64,000 nt of DNA from an uncultured Phycisphaerales bacterium (GTDB taxonomy: Bacteria > Planctomycetota > Phycisphaerae > SM23-33 > FEN-1343). Shown here piece after piece: positions 23,522 through 41,925 of this stretch. The notes beneath the pieces were generated by a model. That model ran no database searches, had not been told where the DNA came from, and was given only the letters and a program-made list of their open reading frames with translations. The position numbers and the translations under genes were made by a program. Location: positions 41,002 to 105,001 of the forward strand of contig CAWAWB010000021.1 of the NCBI GenBank assembly GCA_963785635.1, read 5' to 3'. How positions within the stretch are numbered: the stretch's first letter is position 1; each line of letters opens with the position of its first letter.

Positions 23522-24886
23522 TTACCTGGAAAGTTTCCTGGCCGTGCCGATGATGCCGGCCACCGTATCCTTAAGCTGCTGCTCGGTCAGCCGCGGGTGC
23601 ATGGGCAGGTTCATTTCGCTGGCATAGAAGAACTCTTCGGCATTGGGGCAGTCGCCCGTGACGCCGAACTTCTTGAAGCCTTTGAAATGGTACGTGGGCT
23701 GATAGTGCAGGATGCCCTGTACGCCGAAGTCGCGGTACAGCGTCCGCAGGAACTCGTCGCGGTGGAAGACCTTGGGGTCCACCGTCAGCGTGTACAGATG
23801 GTACACGTGCTTGTAGCCCTGGGGCTCGTACACGCCGTGGACGCCCTTGACGCCCTTGATGCCTTCGTTGATATAGCGGCCGTTGCGCTGGCGCTTTTCC
23901 GTGAGCATGTCCAGCTTCTTGAGCTGGCTCGCGGCCGACGGCCGCCTGGATCTCGTTCATGCGGTAATTGTTGCCCCAGTGGCCGTTGACGTCCTCGACG
24001 TCGAAGTGCGAAGGAATCCAGTAATCCTGGTACTTGCCTTCGATGAGCTTCTTCAGGGTGTACTTGCCGTAGGTCCACTCGCGCTGGTCGCCTTCCCAGT
24101 GCGACAGGTTCATGCAGCGCAGCACCTCGATGGGCTTGACCCACTCTTCGTGATTGGTGGTGATCATGCCGCCTTCGCAAGGTGGTCATGTTCTTTAGAG
24201 AGTGGAAGCTGAACACGCCGACGTCGCCGATCGAGCCGGCCTTGCGACCCTTGTATTCGGCGCCGGGGGTGTGGGCGCAATCTTCTAGGACATACAGGTT
24301 GTGCTTGCGGGCGATCTCCATGATCGGGTCCATGTCGCACATGAGGCCGCCGTAGTGTACGACGTAGATGGCCTTGGTCTTGCTGGTGACCTTGCGGGCG
24401 ATGTCGGCGGGGTCGATGTTGAAGGTGCGTTTGTCGATGTCCGCGTACACCGGCATCACCTTTTCCTTCATGAGCACCAGCGAGGTGGCGACGAAGGTGT
24501 TGGGCGTGACGATCACTTCATCGCCCTGTTTGAGATTAAAAAGCTGCGTACACAGGTGCATGCCGACCGTGCAGTTGGAGACTGCAAAGGCGTGCTTGAC
24601 GCCGTGGGCCTTGGCGAACTCCTGCTGGAAGGCCGTCACCTGCGGGCCCATCGTCAGCGAGTCCTGCTTCATGGCGCGCCAGCGCCGCTTTCTGCTCGGC
24701 CTCATCGTAAATGGAGCCCATGAACGAATAGGGGACCTTCAGCACGACGCCGTCATTGGAGGCGTAACTGGAGGTGATTCCGCCCTCGCTCTCGCTGCCG
24801 GTTACGCCGGCCTGGGCCTCGCCCAAGCCACGGACCTGTGCCTTGCCCTTCGCTTTCGCTTTCGTCTTGACCGTCTGCTTTGCCAT
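23522..24886 (-). CDS. DegT/DnrJ/EryC1/StrS PLP aminotransferase, split by several frameshifts
   Basis: GDEVIVTPNTFVAT, EDCAH, FSFHSLKNMTT, NYRMNEIQAAVG, HVYHLY, LPMHP. Confidence 0.88.
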
Positions 24887-24913
24887 GTTCTTCGCTCCGT
24901 TAATTTTGTTTGG

Positions 24914-25220
24914 GTGGCACAGGCATTCTTGCCTGTGTCCCCTGATACCAGCAACCCAAACTACTTGGGTGGAACAGGCATTCTTGCCTGTGTCCCTTGC
25001 TGCACAATGTAGCGGCTATCGCTGGAAATTTCGAGTCCCTTTTGTTGGCACAGGCGTGCGGCAGGATCTTTCCAAATGCCCACAGGCTGGAAAGCCTGTG
25101 CCACCACAACCAAAGGACACAGGCTGGAAAGCCTGTGCCACCACAACCAAGGGCACAGGCTGGAAAGCCTGTGCCACCACAACCAAAGGACACAGGCTGG
25201 AAAGCCTGTGCCACCACAAC
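24914..25220. repeat. REP-like palindromes: GGCACAGGCATTCTTGCCTGTG copies and four tandem CACAGGCTGGAAAGCCTGTGCCACCACAAC units (period 36-37 bp)
   Basis: Units start at 25081, 25118, 25154, 25191; related pair at 23455-23515. Confidence 0.85.
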
Positions 25221-25306
25221 GGTAGGGGTGGGATTCGAACCCACGGAACCCTTACGGGCTCACCGGTTTTCAAGACCGGCTCCTTCGGCCGCTCGGACAC
25301 CCTACC
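25220..25306 (-). tRNA. tRNA-Ser (anticodon TGA), long variable arm, CCA not encoded
   Basis: Reverse complement GGTAGGGTGTCCGAGCGGCCGAAGGAGCCGGTCTTGAAAACCGG...GGTTCGAATCCCACCCCTACCG. Confidence 0.96.
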
Positions 25307-25678
25307 AGAGGCCGCAAGCGCAGATTCTCTAGTTTTCTTAACCCTTTTGCCAACGTTTTTCGCCGCGCGAACTTGCCGCGCGGCGGAGGCCTTCGCTCAA
25401 ACTGCCACGCGTGCAGACCCATCTATCACCCGGATGATGAAAACAAAATCCCCGCTGACCTTGCAGCAGCCGGCATTACCGATTGGTCAGGCAGGCACAT
25501 TATTCAAGAAGGATGAGGATTCTGGAGGTTGAACCGTTCATCCCGCCACATTTTTCAGTGCCACCAGCAGATTCTTGCCCCCAATGCATCTATAAGAGCA
25601 TTTATGTCAATATGTTATGTTCACAAACCTATCGAGCTCTTGTTTTGCAAAAAACAGAGGCGCAGGCAAAAAAGTAGA

Positions 25679-25707
25679 TTGACAAGATTTCGAGGCTGGC
25701 TTAGAAT
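25679..25707 (+). promoter_or_regulatory. Sigma70 promoter of PEP-CTERM gene 1
   Basis: TTGACA-17-TAGAAT. Confidence 0.7.
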
Positions 25708-25744
25708 CTGTTTTGTTAAACCTGAGTTGAATTTGGGTTTAGCT

Positions 25745-26067
25745 TTGTACCGGCCCCATTTGTTTGGGCCAGGCCTTGTCGTGCTAGGCCAAGCCTCTGC
25801 GATTGTGCGTTTGGTTTGAGCCCCAAATGCACTTTTTGAGTTCGCGGTGTTCCGCTAAACACTGCGAAGATTGGCGGTGCTCCGCTAAGCATCGTCGCCG
25901 TAAATGGAGGGCCTTCCTTATTTCGCCCTTCATATCTGTGCAGTTTCTGTTTCAGGTCTTTGTGTCTCAGTCATTTAAGCAGTTCCGAACGTAGGCTTGA
26001 GGAATGAGCGTTCCCATGGTCCTACGTGAGGCGTAGCCTAGACACCTTTATCGAAAAGGAGAGGGTA
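25745..26067 (+). ncRNA. Structured 5' leader, copy 1 (candidate cis-regulatory RNA)
   Basis: Chain of hairpins, closely duplicated at 27011-27323. Confidence 0.55.
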
Positions 26068-26784
26068 ATGAAGAAGATTGCAGTAATTCTCATGGTTTGC
26101 CTGGCGCTTGTTGGCGTCGCGCAGGCTCAGCGTATTCTTATCGATGTCGGCCTGACCCCCAGCGCCGGCAACTGGAACAATTTCTCCTCAGCGCCCAGTT
26201 GGGGCATCAACGGCGGTGACGTATATCAGTCAGAAGCGACCTCCGTGATCAGTTCTACCGGCGCCGTGGTTCCCGGCGCGGCCATTGGCGTGATGAACAT
26301 GGACGATTGCCGCGCCGATTCGGGCACGACCGGCCTGGGCATCACCTACAACGGGATCACCTATCCTGATACCGCCACCGGCGATATCGCCCAGAACGTG
26401 GACTCGGTGAGCGGCACCGGCGCCGGCCCGGCTGGCTATGCGACCAAGGTCATCATTTCTGGCCTTTCCGCTGGCAACTACAATGTCACCCTGTACTGCG
26501 GCCGCACCAGCGGCACCCGCACGGGCTGGTTCGCCATCAATGGCGGCGCCGCGCAGTTGATTGATGCCGTGGCGCAGAACAACACCACAGAGACATTCGC
26601 CAATTGTGCCACTGCCAACCTGGATGGCCTGTCCAATGCGATCGAAGTGCAGTTCTGGGGCGACAGCGCTTCGGGCGGCTATGCCGACCTGAACGTTGTG
26701 GACCTGGCCCCGGCTCCCGAGCCGGCCACGATGGGCCTGCTGGCCATCGGCGCCCTGATGGCGCTGAAGCGTCGCCGTGCGTAA
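26068..26784 (+). CDS. PEP-CTERM surface protein, paralog 1
   Basis: AAGGAG RBS, signal peptide MKKIAVIL...AQA, C-terminal APEPATMGLLAIGALMALKRRRA. Confidence 0.9.
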   Translation: MKKIAVILMVCLALVGVAQAQRILIDVGLTPSAGNWNNFSSAPSWGINGGDVYQSEATSVISSTGAVVPGAAIGVMNMDDCRADSGTTGLGITYNGITYPDTATGDIAQNVDSVSGTGAGPAGYATKVIISGLSAGNYNVTLYCGRTSGTRTGWFAINGGAAQLIDAVAQNNTTETFANCATANLDGLSNAIEVQFWGDSASGGYADLNVVDLAPAPEPATMGLLAIGALMALKRRRA

Positions 26785-26812
26785 TTTCCGTTAGTTGATT
26801 TGATTTGTAACT

Positions 26813-26856
26813 AAAGCGGCACCTGTGACTTAGGTCATGGGTGCCGCTTTGTTTTC
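26813..26856 (+). terminator. Rho-independent terminator (near-identical copy at 28139-28180)
   Basis: aaagcggcacctgtgacttaggtcatgggtgccgctttgtttt. Confidence 0.8.
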
Positions 26857-26948
26857 TTAGTAGTTTGGCCCTGAAATGCCCCTCAGATCTGTCGACTGAT
26901 TTACCGAATAATCTAAAGAGATATGCCGTGCAATTACAGTTTTTTGCA

Positions 26949-26977
26949 TTGACAGAATTTTGATGTTGGCATATGCT
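26949..26977 (+). promoter_or_regulatory. Sigma70 promoter of PEP-CTERM gene 2
   Basis: TTGACA-17-TATGCT. Confidence 0.65.
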
Positions 26978-27010
26978 GACATCTCAGGTGATCGAATCTG
27001 GATCACTTGA

Positions 27011-27323
27011 TTGTACCGGCCCTATTTGTTTGGGCCAAGGCCTTGTCGTGCTAGGCCAAGCCTCTGCGGTTGTGCGTTTGGTTGAGCCCCAGATGCACTT
27101 TTTGAGTTCGCGGTGTTCCGCTAAATACTGCGAAAAATGGCGGTGCCCGCTAAGCGCCGTCGCCGTAAATGGAGGGCCTTCCTTATTCCGCCCTTCATGT
27201 TCCGTGGTTTTGTTCCAGGTCCTTGTGTCCCAGTAGTTGGAGCAGTTCCGAACGTAGGCTTTGAGCATTTCCATGGCCTCACATGAGGCGAGCCTAGACA
27301 CCTTTATGGAAAAGGAGAGGGTA
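27011..27323 (+). ncRNA. Structured 5' leader, copy 2
   Basis: Duplicate of 25745-26067 with stem-compatible changes. Confidence 0.55.
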
Positions 27324-28100
27324 ATGAAGAAGATCGCAGTAATTCTCATGGCTTGCTTGGCGCTGGTTGCGACCGCCCAGGCAGAGCGTTATCTGATTGA
27401 TGTGGGCGATTCCACGACCCCCACCGCCGGCAATTGGAACAATTTCACCGTTGCAACCGGGAGTTCCGGCTGGGGCGCGACTGGCGACAACAAGTTCGTC
27501 CAGGAAGCCGCCAACATGGTGGACAGCACCGGCGTGGTTCACAATGGCGTGAGCTTCGGTATTTCCAATATCGATGACATTCGCGCCAGCGGCGGCTCGG
27601 CCGCCACCTGGACGGTCGCCGGGATTACCTATCCCGCCACGGCCGCGAGCGATTTCGTGCAGACGACTCAGATCGGCGATGCCACCGGTCCGTTCGTCAA
27701 TGGCGGCGAAAATGGCACGTACAACGAGCACATCATCATCTCCGGCCTGACCAGCGCGGCTTACAATGTCACGCTCTTGGGCGGCCGCGACGGGCAGACC
27801 CCCGGCTCACGTCTGGGTTATTTCCGCATCATCGGCGCTGGCACCAGCGCCATTGTTGCCAACGACGCAGCCGTCCCCGGTCTGGTGAACTTTGCTGCCC
27901 AGGTTCCGGGCACCGTTTCGATCACCGGCCCCGGTGGCACGCTGACCTTCAACAACGCCCTGATGGTTGACTTCTGGGGCGACAGCGTTGCCGGCACCAC
28001 CGACCTGAACGTGGTGGACCTGAACGCCACTCCCGAGCCGGCCACGATGGGCCTGCTGGCGATCGGCGCTCTGATGGCGCTGAAGCGTCGTCGTGCGTAA
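27324..28100 (+). CDS. PEP-CTERM surface protein, paralog 2
   Basis: Signal peptide and TPEPATMGLLAIGALMALKRRRA. Confidence 0.9.
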   Translation: MKKIAVILMACLALVATAQAERYLIDVGDSTTPTAGNWNNFTVATGSSGWGATGDNKFVQEAANMVDSTGVVHNGVSFGISNIDDIRASGGSAATWTVAGITYPATAASDFVQTTQIGDATGPFVNGGENGTYNEHIIISGLTSAAYNVTLLGGRDGQTPGSRLGYFRIIGAGTSAIVANDAAVPGLVNFAAQVPGTVSITGPGGTLTFNNALMVDFWGDSVAGTTDLNVVDLNATPEPATMGLLAIGALMALKRRRA

Positions 28101-28138
28101 TTTCCGGTCTTTCGTTCCGTAGCACTTGATTGGTAACT

Positions 28139-28180
28139 AAAGCGGCACCTGTGACTTAGGTCATGGGTGCCGCTTTGTTT
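28139..28180 (+). terminator. Rho-independent terminator
   Basis: Same hairpin as after paralog 1. Confidence 0.8.
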
Positions 28181-28282
28181 GAATCTGGACTTACCCCGCC
28201 GGCGCTCCTGCCAGAGCTGCCCCCAAGATTTCCAGACCACAACCAAAGTCCTCAATTTTATTCTGCTCCTCCAGAACCCGCA

Positions 28283-28311
28283 TTGACAGATTCTCAAATC
28301 TGAATTAATAT
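28283..28311 (+). promoter_or_regulatory. Sigma70 promoter of PEP-CTERM gene 3
   Basis: TTGACA-17-TAATAT. Confidence 0.6.
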
Positions 28312-28464
28312 GCAGGCGCTCGCGGTAATCTATTTGCTCAGTAAACGGAGGTCTTTCCAGGGCCCTTGAAGCAGGGGCCGACTCTGGCAACCGTACGCGC
28401 GGCTCATTTACCATTTGTCGCATCGGCTGCGCGCTGCTTTGCAGGCTCGTCAAAGGAGGTAGGT

Positions 28465-29241
28465 ATGAAAACGCTCGCGGCCATCCTCGTGCTATGCTTG
28501 GCGATAAGCGCTGCCGCGCAGGCGGATCGCATTCTTATTGATGTAGGCAGCCCGCTCAGCGGCACAATAGGCAACTGGAACAATTTCGCGATTAAGCCTG
28601 TGTACGGCGGTGGCGGGCCGGCGGATGATGGCGGCGACAAGTATCTTGCGGAAAAGATCGCCGGCGCCATGATCGACGGTGTCACGGGAGCAATTCTGCC
28701 CGGCGTTTCATTTGGCGTCTCCAATCTGGATGATGTGCGGCCAGATGGGGGCGTGGACCTTCCCATCAGCAATGCCGGCCTCACCTATCCTGACTCCGCC
28801 ACCAACGACATCGCCCAGTGCATGGACAACGACCCCTTCTTTGGCGATTCCGGCGGCGCGGCCGTCGAGAGCAAGGTTATTATCTCGGGGCTTTCCAGCG
28901 ACAGCTACGACGTCAGTCTGCTGTGTGCCCGCTACAACGGCAGCCGCGCGGGCTGGTTTTCCATCAATGGAAGCCCTGCCCAGCTCATCGATGCCGTCGC
29001 ACACAATTCCAGCGTCGTGACCTTCACCGACATCGTGCCCCAGGACACGACCATCGGCGGCGTGAGCCTGCCCAGGTCTATCGTGGTGGCTTTCTGGGGT
29101 AACCTCGCTCAAGGCGGCGACACGTGCGGCTATGCGGATTTGAACGTGGTCGACCTTATTGGCAATTCGCACGCCCCCGAGCCGATGACCGCCGGCCTGC
29201 TCGTTGCCGGGGCTCTCATGGTTCTCAAACGCCGCCGCTAA
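28465..29241 (+). CDS. PEP-CTERM surface protein, paralog 3
   Basis: AAGGAGGT RBS, signal peptide, APEPMTAGLLVAGALMVLKRRR. Confidence 0.9.
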   Translation: MKTLAAILVLCLAISAAAQADRILIDVGSPLSGTIGNWNNFAIKPVYGGGGPADDGGDKYLAEKIAGAMIDGVTGAILPGVSFGVSNLDDVRPDGGVDLPISNAGLTYPDSATNDIAQCMDNDPFFGDSGGAAVESKVIISGLSSDSYDVSLLCARYNGSRAGWFSINGSPAQLIDAVAHNSSVVTFTDIVPQDTTIGGVSLPRSIVVAFWGNLAQGGDTCGYADLNVVDLIGNSHAPEPMTAGLLVAGALMVLKRRR

Positions 29242-29435
29242 GAAAAATAGCAGGCATGCAGGGGATGCAGGGGATGGGAAAGAATTTTAGCTCTCTAGCT
29301 GTTTAGTCTTTTGGGAACAGCCCCGAAGACGGTGCAGGTCGCAGAGCCCAAAATAGTCAGTTCTTTTTGCTTTGCTTTTTTTCTTTATCCCCTGTATCCC
29401 CTGCATCCCTGCTGACTTCTTTTGTTAGTAAAAAT

Positions 29436-30773
29436 ATGACTCATGCTCCAGAACAAATCAGCCCTCCCCTGACTCACGAAGCGCTCATCCGTCGCCACCT
29501 GCCCTGGAACTACTTCATGCACGTTCTGGATGGCGGGCTGATTGGCGTGGGCCTGCTATTCGTCTCGGTTGAGATGGTCATGCCCGTGGTGATCAAATCG
29601 CTTTCGGGCTCGCCCTATATCATCTCGCTGATGCCCGTGGTGTCCGTTCTGGGCGTGTCGCTGCCGGCGCTGCTGTTCGCGCATCACTGGCAGCGGCTGC
29701 CGCGGCTGCTGCCTATTTCCGTAACGATGGGCTTCATCCAGCGCCTGATGTACCTGGTCGGCGCGGCGGTGCTTTTCCTCTTCGGCAAAAACCCCGCCGT
29801 GGCCGTGGCCGTGGTGGCCTTGTGCCCGCTCATCAGCAACCTGGCCAGCGGCGTCAGCATAAATGCCTGGCAGGAAGTGGTGGCCAAGACCATCCCTCCG
29901 GAACGTCGAAGCTCCCTGTGGGCCGCCCGAGCGGTGATTGCCTCGGTCGGCGGCATCGCCGTCGGCCTGGCGGTGGAGCGGATTCTAAAATGGCAGCCCA
30001 ACTCCAACGGTTACGCGCTGCTGCACCTGATCATGTTCGTCTTTTCCACCGCTTCAGTGATTTGCCTCTCGCGCATGCGCGAGCTGCCCAGCGAGCCGCA
30101 CCATCTGGTGGAACTGACTTTGGCGCAGAACCTGCGCCGCGTGCCGGACCTGATCCTGCGTCAAAAGCGCGTGCTGTATTACGTCCTGGCCGGCGCCGGT
30201 GTGGCGGGCCTGTATATCGCCCTGCCCTGGCTGGGAATCCATGCGCTAAAGGTCCTGGGCAAGAGTGAATCCTTCATGGGCTACCTGCTGACCGCCTTCA
30301 ATCTTGGGGCCATCGTAGGTAATTTGGCCGCGGGGTACGCGGGCGACCGGCTGGGGGGCAAGATTGTCTGCCTGGTCAGCCGCGTGGGCTATCTGGTCGT
30401 GTGCCTCTGGGCGATGTCAGCCATGACACAGACGGAGTTTTACATCATCTACACCATCCTGGGGGCCTGCTGGTACGCCAATGGCGTGGGGGCCCAGACG
30501 CTGGAACTGGAGATCTGCCCCTACGCGGATCGGCCCAGCTACCTGGCGATAATTGCCGCGGTGCGCGTGCCCTCGGTGCTGCTGGCGGCCTTATCCAGCG
30601 TGTGGCTGTGGCAGGCCGGCGGGCGCGGCTTCACCGTGCCTGCCCTGGCCGCCGCGGCGGCCATGGCCGTGGCCATCGTTTTTACGACTTTGATTCGGGA
30701 GCCGCGGGAGAGAAAAGAAATTAGCAGGGATACAGGGGATGCAAGGGATAAAGAAAAGAAAAGTTCTCTTTGA
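29436..30773 (+). CDS. MFS transporter
   Basis: About 12 TM segments; GYAGDRLGGK motif. Confidence 0.85.
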   Translation: MTHAPEQISPPLTHEALIRRHLPWNYFMHVLDGGLIGVGLLFVSVEMVMPVVIKSLSGSPYIISLMPVVSVLGVSLPALLFAHHWQRLPRLLPISVTMGFIQRLMYLVGAAVLFLFGKNPAVAVAVVALCPLISNLASGVSINAWQEVVAKTIPPERRSSLWAARAVIASVGGIAVGLAVERILKWQPNSNGYALLHLIMFVFSTASVICLSRMRELPSEPHHLVELTLAQNLRRVPDLILRQKRVLYYVLAGAGVAGLYIALPWLGIHALKVLGKSESFMGYLLTAFNLGAIVGNLAAGYAGDRLGGKIVCLVSRVGYLVVCLWAMSAMTQTEFYIIYTILGACWYANGVGAQTLELEICPYADRPSYLAIIAAVRVPSVLLAALSSVWLWQAGGRGFTVPALAAAAAMAVAIVFTTLIREPRERKEISRDTGDARDKEKKSSL

Positions 30774-30852
30774 TTCTTTTTCATCCCCTGTATCCCCTGC
30801 ATCCCTGCTATCGTTTCTTTGACTTTTCCAGGTGACATTGTTTAATTCAGGC

Positions 30853-31665
30853 ATGGCGCAAATCATCCTGGACAACGTGACCAAGCTCTTTGAAGGCGGC
30901 GTGGCCGCCGTTGCGCAGGCGCAGTTCGCTCACCAAAGCCGCATTCTGATTGATGTGGGGTCTCCCGGTGCTACCGCGACCCCCGGAAACTGGAACAACT
31001 TTACCGTGCAGCCAAGCTGGTCCAACAGCGGCATGGACCAGTACCTGGTGGAAAACGCGGCCGGGACTGTGGTAAACGATTGTGGCTCGGCGGAGCCCGG
31101 CATGGCCATTGGCGTGGCCAACATGGATGATGTCCGCAGTGATTCAGGGACTTCCAGCACCTGGAACTGCGATGGCATCACCTATCCTTATAACGCCACC
31201 CGCGACATCGTTCAGACCACGGAGGTAGGCGATGCTGCGGGACCCTTTGTCAACGATACACTGACCCCGCCCGGGGCATATCCCTGTAGGGTCATTATCT
31301 CCGGCGTGCTCAGCGCCAATGTGACATTGCTTTGTTCACGCGACAACGCCGGCTCACGCTTAGGTTACTTTCGCGTGAACGGCGGGGCGATTCAGGCCAT
31401 AGATGCGGGGCACGATAATGGCAATGGCACGTTCGGCGGGATGCTGACCTTCTATTCTGTTGGTACCACAATCACGCTTCATCCCGGCGGCACGGGCTCT
31501 CAGACCTTTAACGACGCCATTATGATCGAATTCTGGGGCGACAGCGCTTCCAACAACACGGATTTGAACACAATAGATCTGATGGGAGACGTGCTGGTCC
31601 CCGAGCCGGCCACGCTGGGCCTGCTGGCCCTGGGCGCCTTGGCTGCGCTGAAACGCCGCTGCTGA
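30853..31665 (+). CDS. PEP-CTERM paralog 4, chimeric: signal peptide replaced by a copy of the first 20 codons of the downstream ABC ATPase
   Basis: MAQIILDNVTKLFEGGVAAV then AQAQ...RILIDVG...VPEPATLGLLALGALAALKRRC. Confidence 0.8.
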   Translation: MAQIILDNVTKLFEGGVAAVAQAQFAHQSRILIDVGSPGATATPGNWNNFTVQPSWSNSGMDQYLVENAAGTVVNDCGSAEPGMAIGVANMDDVRSDSGTSSTWNCDGITYPYNATRDIVQTTEVGDAAGPFVNDTLTPPGAYPCRVIISGVLSANVTLLCSRDNAGSRLGYFRVNGGAIQAIDAGHDNGNGTFGGMLTFYSVGTTITLHPGGTGSQTFNDAIMIEFWGDSASNNTDLNTIDLMGDVLVPEPATLGLLALGALAALKRRC

Positions 31666-31824: not shown

Positions 31825-32937
31825 ATGGCGCAGATCGTCCTGGACAACGTGACCAAGCTCTTCGAAGGCGGCGTGACCGCCGTCAGGGACTTCAGCCTGT
31901 CTGTGGCGGATGAGGAATTCGTCGTCCTGGTGGGGCCATCCGGCTGCGGCAAGTCCACCACGCTGCGGCTGATCTCCGGCCTGGAAGAGTTGAACGCCGG
32001 CACGATTCATATCGGCGGCCGCATCGTCAACGACGTCAGCCCGCGCGACCACGACATCGCCATGGTCTTCCAGAACTACGCCCTGTACCCGCACATGACG
32101 GTGTACAAGAACATGGCCTTCGCGCTGAAGCTCCGTAAAGTGCCGCGCAAGGAAATCGATGAGCGCGTCCGCCAGACGGCCCGCATCCTGGGCATTGAAG
32201 AACTGTTGGGGCGGCTGCCCAAGGCCCTCTCCGGCGGCCAGCGCCAACGCGTGGCGGTGGGGCGCGCCATCGTCCGCCAGCCGGCGGCGTTCCTGTTTGA
32301 TGAACCCCTCTCCAATCTCGATGCGCGGCTGCGCCTGGAAATGCGCGCCGAACTGAAACGTTTGCACCAGCGCCTGCGCCGCACGGTCATCTATGTGACC
32401 CACGACCAGGAAGAGGCCATGACGCTGGGGGACCGCATCGTGGTGATGGATAAGGGGATGATCCAGCAGGTGGGCAGGCCGCTGGAGGTTTATGGCCATC
32501 CCGCCAATCGCTTCGTGGCCGGCTTTGTGGGCACGCCGCCCATGAACTTTTTGAGCGGTAAGCTCGTGCAGAATAACGGACTTCATTTCGATGGCGGCTC
32601 GTTCCGCCTTCGCATCACCGACAATCGCGCGGCTACCTTATCACAATGGCTGGATAAGCCGGCGGTCCTGGGCCTCCGGCCCGAGGCGATGGCTCTAGAG
32701 CCGGTGGGACGCTTTGCCGGCCAGTCCAACGTCATCGCCGGCCAGCTACAAGTCGTGGAGCCTTTGGGGGAGAAGATGGACGTTGTTACTTCCATCGGCC
32801 CCGAAGCGCGGCTGGTCGCCCGCGTCGATGCCCGCGACGGCCTTGCCTTGGGCTCTTCCGTGAAGCTCTATGTGGACCTCAGCCGCGCACACTTGTTCGA
32901 CAGCTCCGCCGGAGGCCGCAGTCTCTTAGCCAAATGA
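31825..32937 (+). CDS. Sugar ABC transporter ATP-binding protein (MalK/UgpC family)
   Basis: GPSGCGKST, VFQNYALYPHM, LSGGQRQR, FDEPLSNLDA. Confidence 0.95.
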   Translation: MAQIVLDNVTKLFEGGVTAVRDFSLSVADEEFVVLVGPSGCGKSTTLRLISGLEELNAGTIHIGGRIVNDVSPRDHDIAMVFQNYALYPHMTVYKNMAFALKLRKVPRKEIDERVRQTARILGIEELLGRLPKALSGGQRQRVAVGRAIVRQPAAFLFDEPLSNLDARLRLEMRAELKRLHQRLRRTVIYVTHDQEEAMTLGDRIVVMDKGMIQQVGRPLEVYGHPANRFVAGFVGTPPMNFLSGKLVQNNGLHFDGGSFRLRITDNRAATLSQWLDKPAVLGLRPEAMALEPVGRFAGQSNVIAGQLQVVEPLGEKMDVVTSIGPEARLVARVDARDGLALGSSVKLYVDLSRAHLFDSSAGGRSLLAK

Positions 32938-33420: not shown

Positions 33421-36029
<2,609 letters not shown>

Positions 36030-39880: not shown

Positions 39881-40594
39881 TTGAAATTATCCCACCCCAT
39901 CGCGATCAAATCCATCAGCCTTCTGGCTGCATGGTTTTTGCGCGCCTGGCTGAGCACTTTGGATTTCCGCTTTGCCGTGGATGATATGAACTTAAACCCT
40001 AACCTCCTGCGCCGCCGGGCGTGATACATGTTCTGGCACGAGACGTTGCTGCTGCCGGCCTATACACACGCGCGCCAGGGATTTACTATTCTGGTAAGCA
40101 CACATCGCGACGGCGAGCTGATAACGCAGATTGTGCGCATGCTGCGCGGCCGCGCCGTGCGCGGCTCCACCACGCGCGGCGGTACGGCGGCGCTTCTGGG
40201 GATGATGCGTCACAAGCTGGGCCGCCACCTGGCCATAACGCCGGATGGCCCGCGCGGACCGCGCCGCCAGTTGCAGATGGGCGCGATTTACCTGGCCAGC
40301 CGGGGCCGCATGCCGCTGATTCCGTTTGGCCTGGCCGCGGCCGACGCCTGGAGAGCCCCAAGCTGGGACCGCACCATTTTGCCGCGGCCGTGGCGGGCGT
40401 GCCGGGGAGTGCTGGGACGGGCCATCGAAATTCCGCACGATGCCGGCCGCGAGGAACTGGAGCGATATCGTCGGCTCGCCCAGCAGGCGATGGATGATGT
40501 GCAGGACCGTGCGGAAAGAATCGCCGCCGGCACGCGCACGGAGAAGCTGTGGACGCTGGCTCAGACCAATGCGATGACGGGAGATTTGTTATGA
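39881..40594 (+). CDS. DUF374 / lysophospholipid acyltransferase-family protein, frameshift near 40020
   Basis: FWH, STHRDGE, VRGSTTRGG, TPDGPRGP, SWDR. Confidence 0.8.
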
Positions 40595-41925
40595 CCACTC
40601 AATATCAGGCCGCCGTAGCCGGCACGATCACTCCGGAGATGGAGCGCGTCGCCGAGCGCGAGGGTTTAACCGGCCGGCACGTGCGCCAGGAGATTGCCGC
40701 GGGCCGCCTGGTGATTCCCGCCAACATGGTGCACCTGGCTGGGGCGGGCGGTTCAAAAACGCGACTTGACCCGGCAGGCGTCGGCCGCTGCCTCTCCACA
40801 AAGATCAACGCCAATATTGGCGCATCGCCCCTGGCCTCGGACACGGGTGAGGAACTTTGCAAGCTCGCTTGCGCACGCCGCTGGGGCGCCGATGCCGTGA
40901 TGGATCTTTCCACCGGCGGCGATGTCACCACGACGCGGCAGGCCATCCTGGCCGCCAGCGATATTCCGGTGGGCACGGTGCCTATGTACAGCATGATTAT
41001 CGGCCAGGGCGGCAAACTGCGGCCCGTGGAAGAACTGACCTGTGACGATATGCTCGCCGAGATCGAGCGCCAGGCGCGGCAAGGGGTGGATTTCTTCACC
41101 ATTCACGCGGGTATTCTGCGCCGCCATCTCCCCGCCGCCACAAAGCGGCTCATGGGCATCGTTTCGCGCGGCGGGAGCCTGTTAGCCAAGTGGATGGTTC
41201 ACCACAATCGGGAAAACCCCCTGTACGAGATGTTCGAGGAAATCTCCGCTATCATGCGGCAGTACGATGTCTGCTACTCTTTGGGCGACGGCCTGCGCCC
41301 CGGCTGCCTGGCCGATGCCTCCGATGCGGCCCAGTTCGCCGAGTTGGATGTGCTGGGAGAGCTTGTTCAGCGCGCCTGCGCGGCCGGTGTTCAGGCGATG
41401 GTGGAAGGGCCCGGCCATGTGCCCTTTAACCAGATTGAAGAAAACATGAAGCGACAGGAGCGCATCTGCGACGGCGCGCCGTTTTATGTGCTTGGACCGC
41501 TCATCACCGATGCCTTCCCCGGCTACGATCATATCACCTCGGCCATCGGCGCCACCGCCGCGGCGGTGCACGGCGCGTCCTTCCTGTGCTACGTAACGCC
41601 CAAGGAACACCTGGGCTTGCCCACGGTAGAGGATGTGAAGGCCGGTTGCATCGCCTACAAGATCGCCGCGCACGGCGCAGATGTTGCCCGCGGCTTACCG
41701 GGCGCTCGCGACTGGGATGACCGCATCTCGGCGGCGCGGGCGAAATTCGACTGGCCGACGGTTTTTGCGGAGGCCTTTGATGGCCCTACCGTGCGCCAGA
41801 TGAAGCAGGCGACCACCGCCGGCTCGGATGATTATTGCGGCATGTGCGGCCGCGAATGGTGCGCCCTGCGCATCAGCAAACAGGTCAAAGAGCAATTGCA
41901 GACGGCGCAAGTAAGCAAAACCTGA
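40591..41925 (+). CDS. thiC: Phosphomethylpyrimidine synthase
   Basis: KINANIG, MDLSTGG, SLGDGLRPG, EGPGHVP, CYVTPKEH, CGMCG..WC. Confidence 0.95.
   Translation: MTTQYQAAVAGTITPEMERVAEREGLTGRHVRQEIAAGRLVIPANMVHLAGAGGSKTRLDPAGVGRCLSTKINANIGASPLASDTGEELCKLACARRWGADAVMDLSTGGDVTTTRQAILAASDIPVGTVPMYSMIIGQGGKLRPVEELTCDDMLAEIERQARQGVDFFTIHAGILRRHLPAATKRLMGIVSRGGSLLAKWMVHHNRENPLYEMFEEISAIMRQYDVCYSLGDGLRPGCLADASDAAQFAELDVLGELVQRACAAGVQAMVEGPGHVPFNQIEENMKRQERICDGAPFYVLGPLITDAFPGYDHITSAIGATAAAVHGASFLCYVTPKEHLGLPTVEDVKAGCIAYKIAAHGADVARGLPGARDWDDRISAARAKFDWPTVFAEAFDGPTVRQMKQATTAGSDDYCGMCGREWCALRISKQVKEQLQTAQVSKT

Follow-up and report, generated by a model that had tools for sequence, protein, structure and literature searches.

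The window analysed in this study is a stretch of 64,000 nucleotides (nt) from an uncultured Phycisphaerales bacterium, corresponding to positions 41002-105001 of its contig in a 4.2-Mb metagenome-assembled genome (MAG) that comprises 26 contigs and is 78% complete. It carries four paralogous genes (genes 1 to 4, at 26068-26784, 27324-28100, 28465-29241 and 30853-31665), the first two of which stand in tandem and encode PEP-CTERM proteins of 238 and 258 amino acids (aa), respectively. Genes 1 and 2 are each preceded by a copy of the same long leader, and our analyses indicate that this element as a whole is probably a real, structured and lineage-specific leader RNA. The interpretation that we favour, to which we give about an even chance, is that of a lineage-restricted, cis-acting 5' leader of approximately 355 nt that sets the fate of the mRNAs for these secreted, PEP-CTERM-anchored paralogs. 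In functional terms, such a leader would most likely stabilise the mRNA and would probably also offer a place where an RNA-binding factor docks. Positions are those of the window, and all features of the two gene units are on the + strand.

A duplicated structured leader ahead of the first two paralogs had been proposed in an earlier note on this DNA, and the duplication is real. Leader 1 (25745-26067) matches only two places in the 4.2-Mb genome, namely itself and leader 2 (27011-27323), at 88% identity. As the note had also stated, the leaders lie between a sigma-70 promoter and the ribosome-binding site (RBS), with near-consensus promoter-like sites found upstream of both copies: TTGACA-17-TAGAAT at 25679-25707 for copy 1 (11 of 12 consensus positions, with a predicted start near 25713-25716) and TTGACA-17-TATGCT at 26949-26977 for copy 2 (10 of 12). 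The transcription starts used here are predictions from these sites, of which five were found in 4.1 kb against 1.8 expected; the distance from promoter to gene is approximately 355 nt for both genes. Gene 3 is likewise preceded by a near-consensus sigma-70 promoter-like site (28283-28311).

An identity profile along the duplicated unit, taken in 40-column windows, was highly uneven. Identity is approximately 50 to 65% from the promoter spacer to the 30th transcribed nt, with the -35 and -10 hexamers retained within the diverged spacer, and it then rises to 90 to 97% over 25763-25920, falls to 67 to 80% over 25920-26040 and returns to 95% at the RBS and start codon. The centre of the coding sequence (CDS) shows 25 to 68%, mostly 40 to 55%, and identity is again 85 to 95% at the C-terminus and 97% at the 3' terminator. 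The intrinsic terminator of gene 1 (26812-26851) is part of a 55-nt repeat with 98% identity between the two genes (26800-26854 and 28126-28180); both hairpins have 18-bp stems, and the spacer between stop codon and terminator hairpin has diverged. The claim that the leader is more conserved than the coding centres is therefore upheld by the 5' 180 nt, which are 96% identical between the copies, with the qualification that conservation is uneven within the leader. Overall, conservation forms a mosaic that follows functional elements: the promoter hexamers, the structure of a 5'-terminal hairpin (H0), the 5' half of the leader, the RBS and the terminator. Three 1-nt indels separate the leader copies and should not be over-read, since the assembly may carry indel errors (two nearby genes look frameshifted). 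A coding leader peptide was considered and rejected; the leader open reading frames (ORFs) differ between the copies, and the three indels break a common frame.

Both leaders fold more stably than shuffled sequences. The predicted free energy is -122.3 kcal/mol for leader 1 (z-score -3.8) and -126.3 kcal/mol for leader 2 (z-score -3.4), and in neither case were any of 100 shuffles as good. The antisense strand of leader 1 reaches -106.6 kcal/mol, 16 kcal/mol worse than the sense strand, because several stems hold G-U pairs; the z-scores of the two strands are alike. These and the following statistics are drawn from two leader copies, or four hairpins, of one genome. Seven hairpins had been claimed in the earlier note. 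Five of them (P1, P3, P4, P5 and P6) fold as described and are part of the minimum-energy fold of both copies, and the remaining two, ggcct/aggcc and taggct/agccta, lose to long-range pairing in silico, with partition-function probabilities of 0.06 and 0-0.03, respectively. P1 (25752-25770; 27018-27036 in copy 2) has a GGCCC/GGGCC stem. Hairpins P3 to P6 each beat shuffles when folded alone, at -14.4 kcal/mol (z-score -4.8) for P3 (25805-25837; 27072-27103), -15.1 kcal/mol (z-score -4.0) for P4, -13.3 kcal/mol (z-score -2.6) for P5 and -11.5 kcal/mol (z-score -2.8) for P6. The last of these (25904-25933; 27169-27198) pairs AUGGAGGGC with GCCCUUCAU around a 12-nt loop, and its 5' arm resembles a Shine-Dalgarno sequence.

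Upstream of these hairpins, H0 is the 5'-terminal hairpin in both copies and lies 1 to 3 nt after the predicted start. In copy 1 (25715-25743) it has 13 bp and an energy of -12.1 kcal/mol (z-score -4.2, with 0 of 200 shuffles as good), and in copy 2 (26984-27010) it has 10 bp and an energy of -14.1 kcal/mol (z-score -4.4). The two H0 regions can barely be aligned with each other: the hairpin has been retained and the sequence is different.

Twin adjacent hairpins displaying the same CCGCUA loop, the most specific of the features reported earlier, are present in both leader copies. P4 (25841-25868; 27107-27134) is an 11-bp hairpin and P5 (25872-25897; 27137-27162) a 10-bp hairpin, and the two form tandem stem-loops with a linker of 2 to 3 nt. 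The loop is a hexanucleotide in three of the four hairpins and has 7 nt in the fourth after a 1-nt deletion, and CCGCUA is invariant in all four. Within copy 1, the 5' arm and loop of P4 and P5 agree at 15 of 17 positions, and 6 of 11 positions differ between their 3' arms. When the four instances were aligned, 95.3% of cells were paired, a percentage reached by 10 of 500 shuffles, and slid registers gave 28 to 68%. The alignment contains two fully compensatory pairs and six pairs with one-sided (wobble) changes. Judged from this alignment, P5 is an internal duplicate of P4 and the duplication kept the pairing. The genome has 1425 occurrences of CCGCTA/TAGCGG, of which 21 are loops on stems no shorter than 6 bp; the four leader hairpins have stems of 9 to 11 bp, and only one other in the genome reaches 9 bp.

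Between the copies, stem differences had been described as compatible with pairing, and this is true of part of the leader. All four substitutions in P3, P4 and P5 keep the pair via wobble. When copy 1 is taken as reference for the 3' half, five of the substitutions that fall on predicted paired positions keep the pair, five break it and one lies opposite a gap, so that changes at paired positions are disruptive there about as often as not. This variable part of copy 1 (25934-26027) is 67 to 80% identical to its counterpart, contains a conserved island at 25975-25999 and has no structure common to both copies. It is followed by a second, 3' island (26028-26067) with GAGGC, GCCUAGACAC, a small CCUUU/AAAGG hairpin and the Shine-Dalgarno sequence AAGGAGAGGGU at 26056-26066 (27312-27322 in copy 2).

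The long-range pairing that displaces the two smaller hairpins involves a 31-nt 5' block between P1 and P3 (25772-25802; 27039-27069), which has one difference between the copies and contains ggcct/aggcc. A long-range helix between GUGCUAGGC (25781-25789) and GCCUAGaCAC (26036-26045) is predicted with a probability of 0.93 in both copies. Successive segments of the 5' block are complementary to both conserved 3'-half islands and also to the Shine-Dalgarno sequence. The duplex of the 5' block with the start region has a predicted energy of -32.8 kcal/mol in copy 1 (z-score -3.0, 5 of 1000 shuffles as good) and -31.0 kcal/mol in copy 2 (z-score -2.1, 21 of 1000). Modelled in this way, and without covariation, the long-range complementarity would explain why conserved islands persist in a variable 3' half.

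Relatives of the leader were sought at several levels. Rfam 15 at its gathering score gave a single match in the 64-kb window, a tRNA at 25220-25306 on the - strand, and lowering the threshold to E values up to 10 over 25600-28500 gave seven weak matches, none of them within either leader. This agrees with the earlier note, which did not recognise the element as a known riboswitch. BLASTN of the leader against seven genomes of the family found it in the window genome alone and in none of the six others; against 401 genomes of the class, with E up to 0.01, it returned four genomes, consisting of its own and three with matches of 23 to 38 nt. A covariance model of the 5' half, run on 99 genomes of the order, recovered its own two copies and three weak matches (E of 0.013, 0.055 and 0.355 per genome) that we read as chance. 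A metagenome scan with the protein alignment produced 162 pattern matches and no relative, and one with a twin-loop DNA pattern produced 45 loci, none with twin hairpins, where the best BLAST overlap was 24 to 42 nt; we take all 45 to be chance matches. A scan of genome contigs gave five loci, all in the MAG Phycisphaerales bacterium fen_1343, the one same-genus relative in the collections searched. Neither the 6 further genomes of the family, 98 of the order and 400 of the class nor the metagenome scan yielded an aptamer that is shared between species and has covarying helices. In these searches, deep conservation of the riboswitch kind is absent.

In the same-genus genome, this gene family offers a further and independent example of a leader under constraint. 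That genome has two stand-alone paralogs on different contigs with their own shared leader of approximately 210 nt (locus L004, 1290-1503; locus L022, 1300-1503), which is confined to those two places and folds with z-scores of -2.6 and -3.3 against shuffles. By inspection of the alignment, conservation in the core of this leader far exceeds that at the synonymous sites of the two genes (synonymous divergence, dS, of 0.33). The leader of gene 3 is confined to its own gene and is not structured beyond chance (z-score 0.29). Comparison of the three leader types (that of genes 1 and 2, that of gene 3 and that of the same-genus genome) revealed only a 12-nt Shine-Dalgarno stretch in common, and no synteny of the window with the two same-genus loci was found beyond the paralogs themselves.

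In the interpretation that we favour, the leader would act after initiation by controlling what becomes of the mRNA. The stem-loop H0 would stand at the start of each transcript and, together with the stable hairpins P1 and P3 to P6, would protect the mRNA from 5'-end-dependent decay in the manner of an S-layer leader; this protection would allow high and equal output of both paralogs. The CCGCUA hairpin pair is a duplicated module on which an RNA-binding factor, specific for the loop and probably dimeric, may dock. Such a role would fit a module in which the 5' arm and loop do not vary and the 3' arm is constrained only to remain complementary. The docked factor could tune read-through at the terminator-like hairpin P3 or, alternatively, access to the ribosome-binding region, which is able to pair with the 31-nt 5' block.

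Several observations weigh against this interpretation. The leader is known from one MAG only, with no homologue elsewhere in our searches; for that reason there is no wider alignment and no independent covariation, and the role of the leader is one that we infer. The same-genus genome carries a different leader type. A search for CCGCUA hairpins as a recurring regulon signal found none of comparable kind elsewhere in the genome, which argues against a CCGCUA regulon. The finding that four of four substitutions are kept by wobble has a chance of approximately 0.08, given that they are transitions. In the 5' half, five substitutions fall in approximately 82 unpaired nt and four in approximately 98 paired nt, and since unpaired positions are as conserved as paired ones, a pure stabiliser reading is weakened. 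The predicted accessibility of the Shine-Dalgarno sequences is ordinary for the genome (48th and 46th among 150 background genes), and unusual sequestration of these sites was rejected as a candidate mechanism. The last point on this side is the low dS at the gene ends, which has to be considered together with the divergence of the two genes as a whole.

Taken over their whole length, genes 1 and 2 differ by a dS of 0.79; the value is 0.8 to 1.4 in the centre and falls to 0.58 in the first 20 and to 0.20 in the last 25 aligned codons. ThiC of the window genome and of its same-genus relative differ by a dS of 0.89. In age, the coding centres are thus comparable to the species split, and the gene ends are younger, which suggests gene conversion or mosaic recombination. 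Divergence in the 5' half of the leader is approximately 0.05 per site, compared with the dS of 0.8 to 1.4 in the CDS centre. Since the same-genus leader differs despite a similar dS, purifying selection acting without a break from the duplication onward probably does not account for everything. The pattern of divergence points to a contribution of gene conversion to the similarity of the copies, and we infer that their near-identity reflects purifying selection on the elements combined with gene conversion between the paralogs.

At its extreme, this argument becomes an alternative explanation in its own right, one of concerted evolution only. Gene conversion or a recent partial duplication would have homogenised the gene ends, and the hairpins would be incidental to G+C-rich non-coding DNA with no RNA function beyond the RBS. 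The contrast in dS between gene ends and centre speaks for it, as do the even conservation of loops, junctions and stems in the 5' half, the restriction of the leader to one genome, the other leader type in the same-genus genome and the gene 3 leader that folds no better than chance. However, it needs at least two short tracts, of approximately 180 and 55 nt, placed around a 115-nt stretch at 67 to 80% identity, with borders that coincide with structural elements. It also leaves unexplained why two different strong H0 hairpins stand at the same place after the predicted start, why P4 and P5 show a compensatory and wobble pattern around an invariant loop, why the whole leaders reach z-scores of -3.4 to -3.8 and why the G-U pairs are strand-specific. 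Conservation due solely to gene conversion, which the earlier note had named as the outcome that would overturn its proposal, is thus partly borne out by the dS at the gene ends, and conversion alone fits poorly. On balance we consider this explanation rather unlikely.

A different function is suggested by P3. The hairpin has 10 bp, five of them G-C, and is followed directly by UUUUU, and a terminator scan called this combination of a G+C-containing stem and U run in both copies; by these features it looks like an intrinsic terminator. Hairpins of at least 10 bp followed by TTTTT number 152 in the genome (both strands, 4.2 Mb), 116 of them in the part of the genome left free by a coding mask with 78% coverage, so that the motif class is rare and mostly non-coding. 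The leader could therefore be imagined as a transcription attenuator, in which P3 and its U run would terminate transcription approximately 120 nt into the leader and read-through would be regulated by a protein or ligand sensing the conserved 5' block. Downstream of P3, the leader has no further promoter-like site ahead of the start codon, and the best-conserved block is just upstream of P3, as an attenuator would have it. Against this, a conserved antiterminator was not found among the alternative pairings of both copies; the sole alternative for P3 falls short of its stability by approximately 9 kcal/mol in copy 1 and is lost in copy 2, and the twin hairpins cannot compete with P3 because they are located downstream of it. 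The U-tract consists of five U only. Aptamers are usually conserved across genomes, and the leader has neither a match to an Rfam riboswitch nor conservation beyond its own genome. We regard regulated attenuation as unlikely.

The attenuator idea can be extended to a two-part control element, in which the twin CCGCUA hairpins, whose loops are not of the ANTAR type, would be read by a dimeric RNA-binding protein while a terminator-released RNA of approximately 125 nt would pair through its 31-nt block with both RBS regions, giving a feedback in cis and in trans that evens out the expression of surface-protein paralogs in Phycisphaerae; this more elaborate scheme seems improbable to us. Its second half on its own, a leader-derived small RNA of approximately 125 nt (H0, P1, the 5' block and P3) released by termination at P3 and pairing through the 5' block in trans with the RBS regions of both paralogs, is very improbable: a promoter, a structured RNA and a terminator-like end do resemble a small-RNA gene, and the block and start region form the duplexes of -32.8 and -31.0 kcal/mol described above (5 and 21 of 1000 shuffles as good), but the z-scores of -3.0 and -2.1 are modest, the same complementarity works in cis and the targets would be the two host genes only.

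The proteins encoded downstream of the leader belong to a recognisable surface-sorting system. By curated cut-offs, all four paralogs end in a PEP-CTERM sorting signal, with Pfam PF07589 scores of 22.1, 22.7 and 25.4 bits for genes 1, 2 and 4 (cut-off 20.7) and, for gene 3, a match to TIGR02595 only (16.9 against a cut-off of 16). Exosortase (PF09721) is encoded at two loci of the window genome, with scores of 206.8 and 158.5 bits. A domain of approximately 190 residues sits between the signal peptide and the PEP-CTERM signal in the paralogs. The structural model of the gene 1 protein is a beta-sandwich of low confidence (predicted local distance difference test, pLDDT, of 62.6) with weak matches to carbohydrate-binding modules (template modelling scores of 0.25 to 0.5), a hint only that the paralogs are possibly carbohydrate-binding-like beta-sandwiches. 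The same domain of approximately 190 residues is also found at the C-terminus of large open frames of 612 to 1313 aa in the window genome (C18:39978-40589, C4:555749-556150 and C12:142066-142488) and in its same-genus relative (G002, contigs C90, C141 and C7), where it is preceded by repeated immunoglobulin-like modules with a GTVSDDGLP motif. Gene 4 is without a signal peptide, and its first 59 nt (30853-30911) are a 93% copy of the start of a MalK-like ATP-binding cassette (ABC) ATPase gene (31825-31883). With a start copied from this neighbouring gene, gene 4 looks like a chimera or pseudogene.

Other features were observed in the surroundings. A DegT/DnrJ-type aminotransferase gene (23522-24705) and a ClpB-like ATPase gene (33421-36029) each seem to be split in two ORFs, which could be due to frameshifts, pseudogenes or assembly indel errors. 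Four tandem palindromic units of 36 to 37 nt (GGCACAGGCTGGAAAGCCTGTGCC plus spacer) at 24904-25220 abut the tRNA gene (25220-25306, - strand), and two units related to the palindromic GGCACAGGCTGGAAAGCCTGTGCC repeats lie in inverted orientation at 24910-24999. The gene for a major facilitator superfamily (MFS) transporter (29367-30773) is flanked on both sides by inverted repeats of the ATCCCCTGTATCCCCTGCATCCCTGCT type, 27 to 48 nt long and 85 to 93% complementary (29247-29285, 29376-29423, 30713-30760 and 30773-30811). The thiC gene (40549-41922) directly follows a DUF374 gene, and no thiamine pyrophosphate (TPP) riboswitch was found in the window by the Rfam scan at gathering score.

To our knowledge, post-transcriptional control is almost unstudied in Planctomycetota, and no link between PEP-CTERM genes and leader RNAs was found in the literature searched, at the level of search results. 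If the favoured interpretation is correct, the leader would be a first example of how the expression of abundant exosortase-sorted surface proteins is set in these bacteria, and the twin CCGCUA hairpins would offer a handle for finding the binding factor. Since it is known from a single MAG, the element should be regarded as a candidate for experiment and not as a new RNA family.

Among known systems, the leader can be compared with three kinds of 5' control elements. With the riboswitches and attenuators in Rfam it shares its position between promoter and start codon, its multiple helices and a hairpin with a U-tract, and it differs from them in having no Rfam match, no conservation beyond one genome and no conserved antiterminator. 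The dual hairpins targeted by ANTAR proteins (EutV, NasR and AmiR) are the closest known system with twin hexaloops. They are described as a tandem hairpin pair whose hexanucleotide loops carry A at position 1 and G at position 4; the pair is read by a dimeric RNA-binding domain and stands in a leader that also holds a terminator (PMC3369931). The leader of genes 1 and 2 likewise has two tandem same-loop hexanucleotide hairpins, joined by a linker, in a 5' leader with a hairpin that is terminator-like. However, its loops are CCGCUA, with C at positions 1 and 4, its stems of 10 to 11 bp are not mini-hairpins, and no terminator overlaps the second hairpin; P3, which resembles one, is upstream of P4, so that pairing mutually exclusive with a downstream terminator is not seen. 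The ANTAR domain (PF03861) had no match in the 78%-complete genome, nor in the control genomes. The likeness is one of architecture, not of membership.

The nearest functional parallels are stabilising leaders of surface-protein mRNAs. In Escherichia coli, a 5' stem-loop stabilises the ompA mRNA. The S-layer mRNAs (slpA) of Lactobacillus are stabilised by long, structured 5' untranslated regions (PMC3666127). There is no sequence relation to either, and the present leader is longer at approximately 355 nt, contains a terminator-like hairpin and twin hexaloops, and is common to two paralogs. What it has in common with them is that a gene with a strong promoter, whose product is a secreted surface protein, is preceded by an extended untranslated leader that opens with a 5'-terminal stem-loop and continues with other stable hairpins. 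A stem-loop within a few nt of the 5' end, as a stabiliser of this type would have, is provided by H0 in both copies, counting from the predicted start. The earlier suggestion of an mRNA-stabilising leader like those of S-layer mRNAs is matched in this architecture of a 5' stem-loop followed by a chain of hairpins, and a stabilising role, which would be the counterpart in function, is the reading that we favour.

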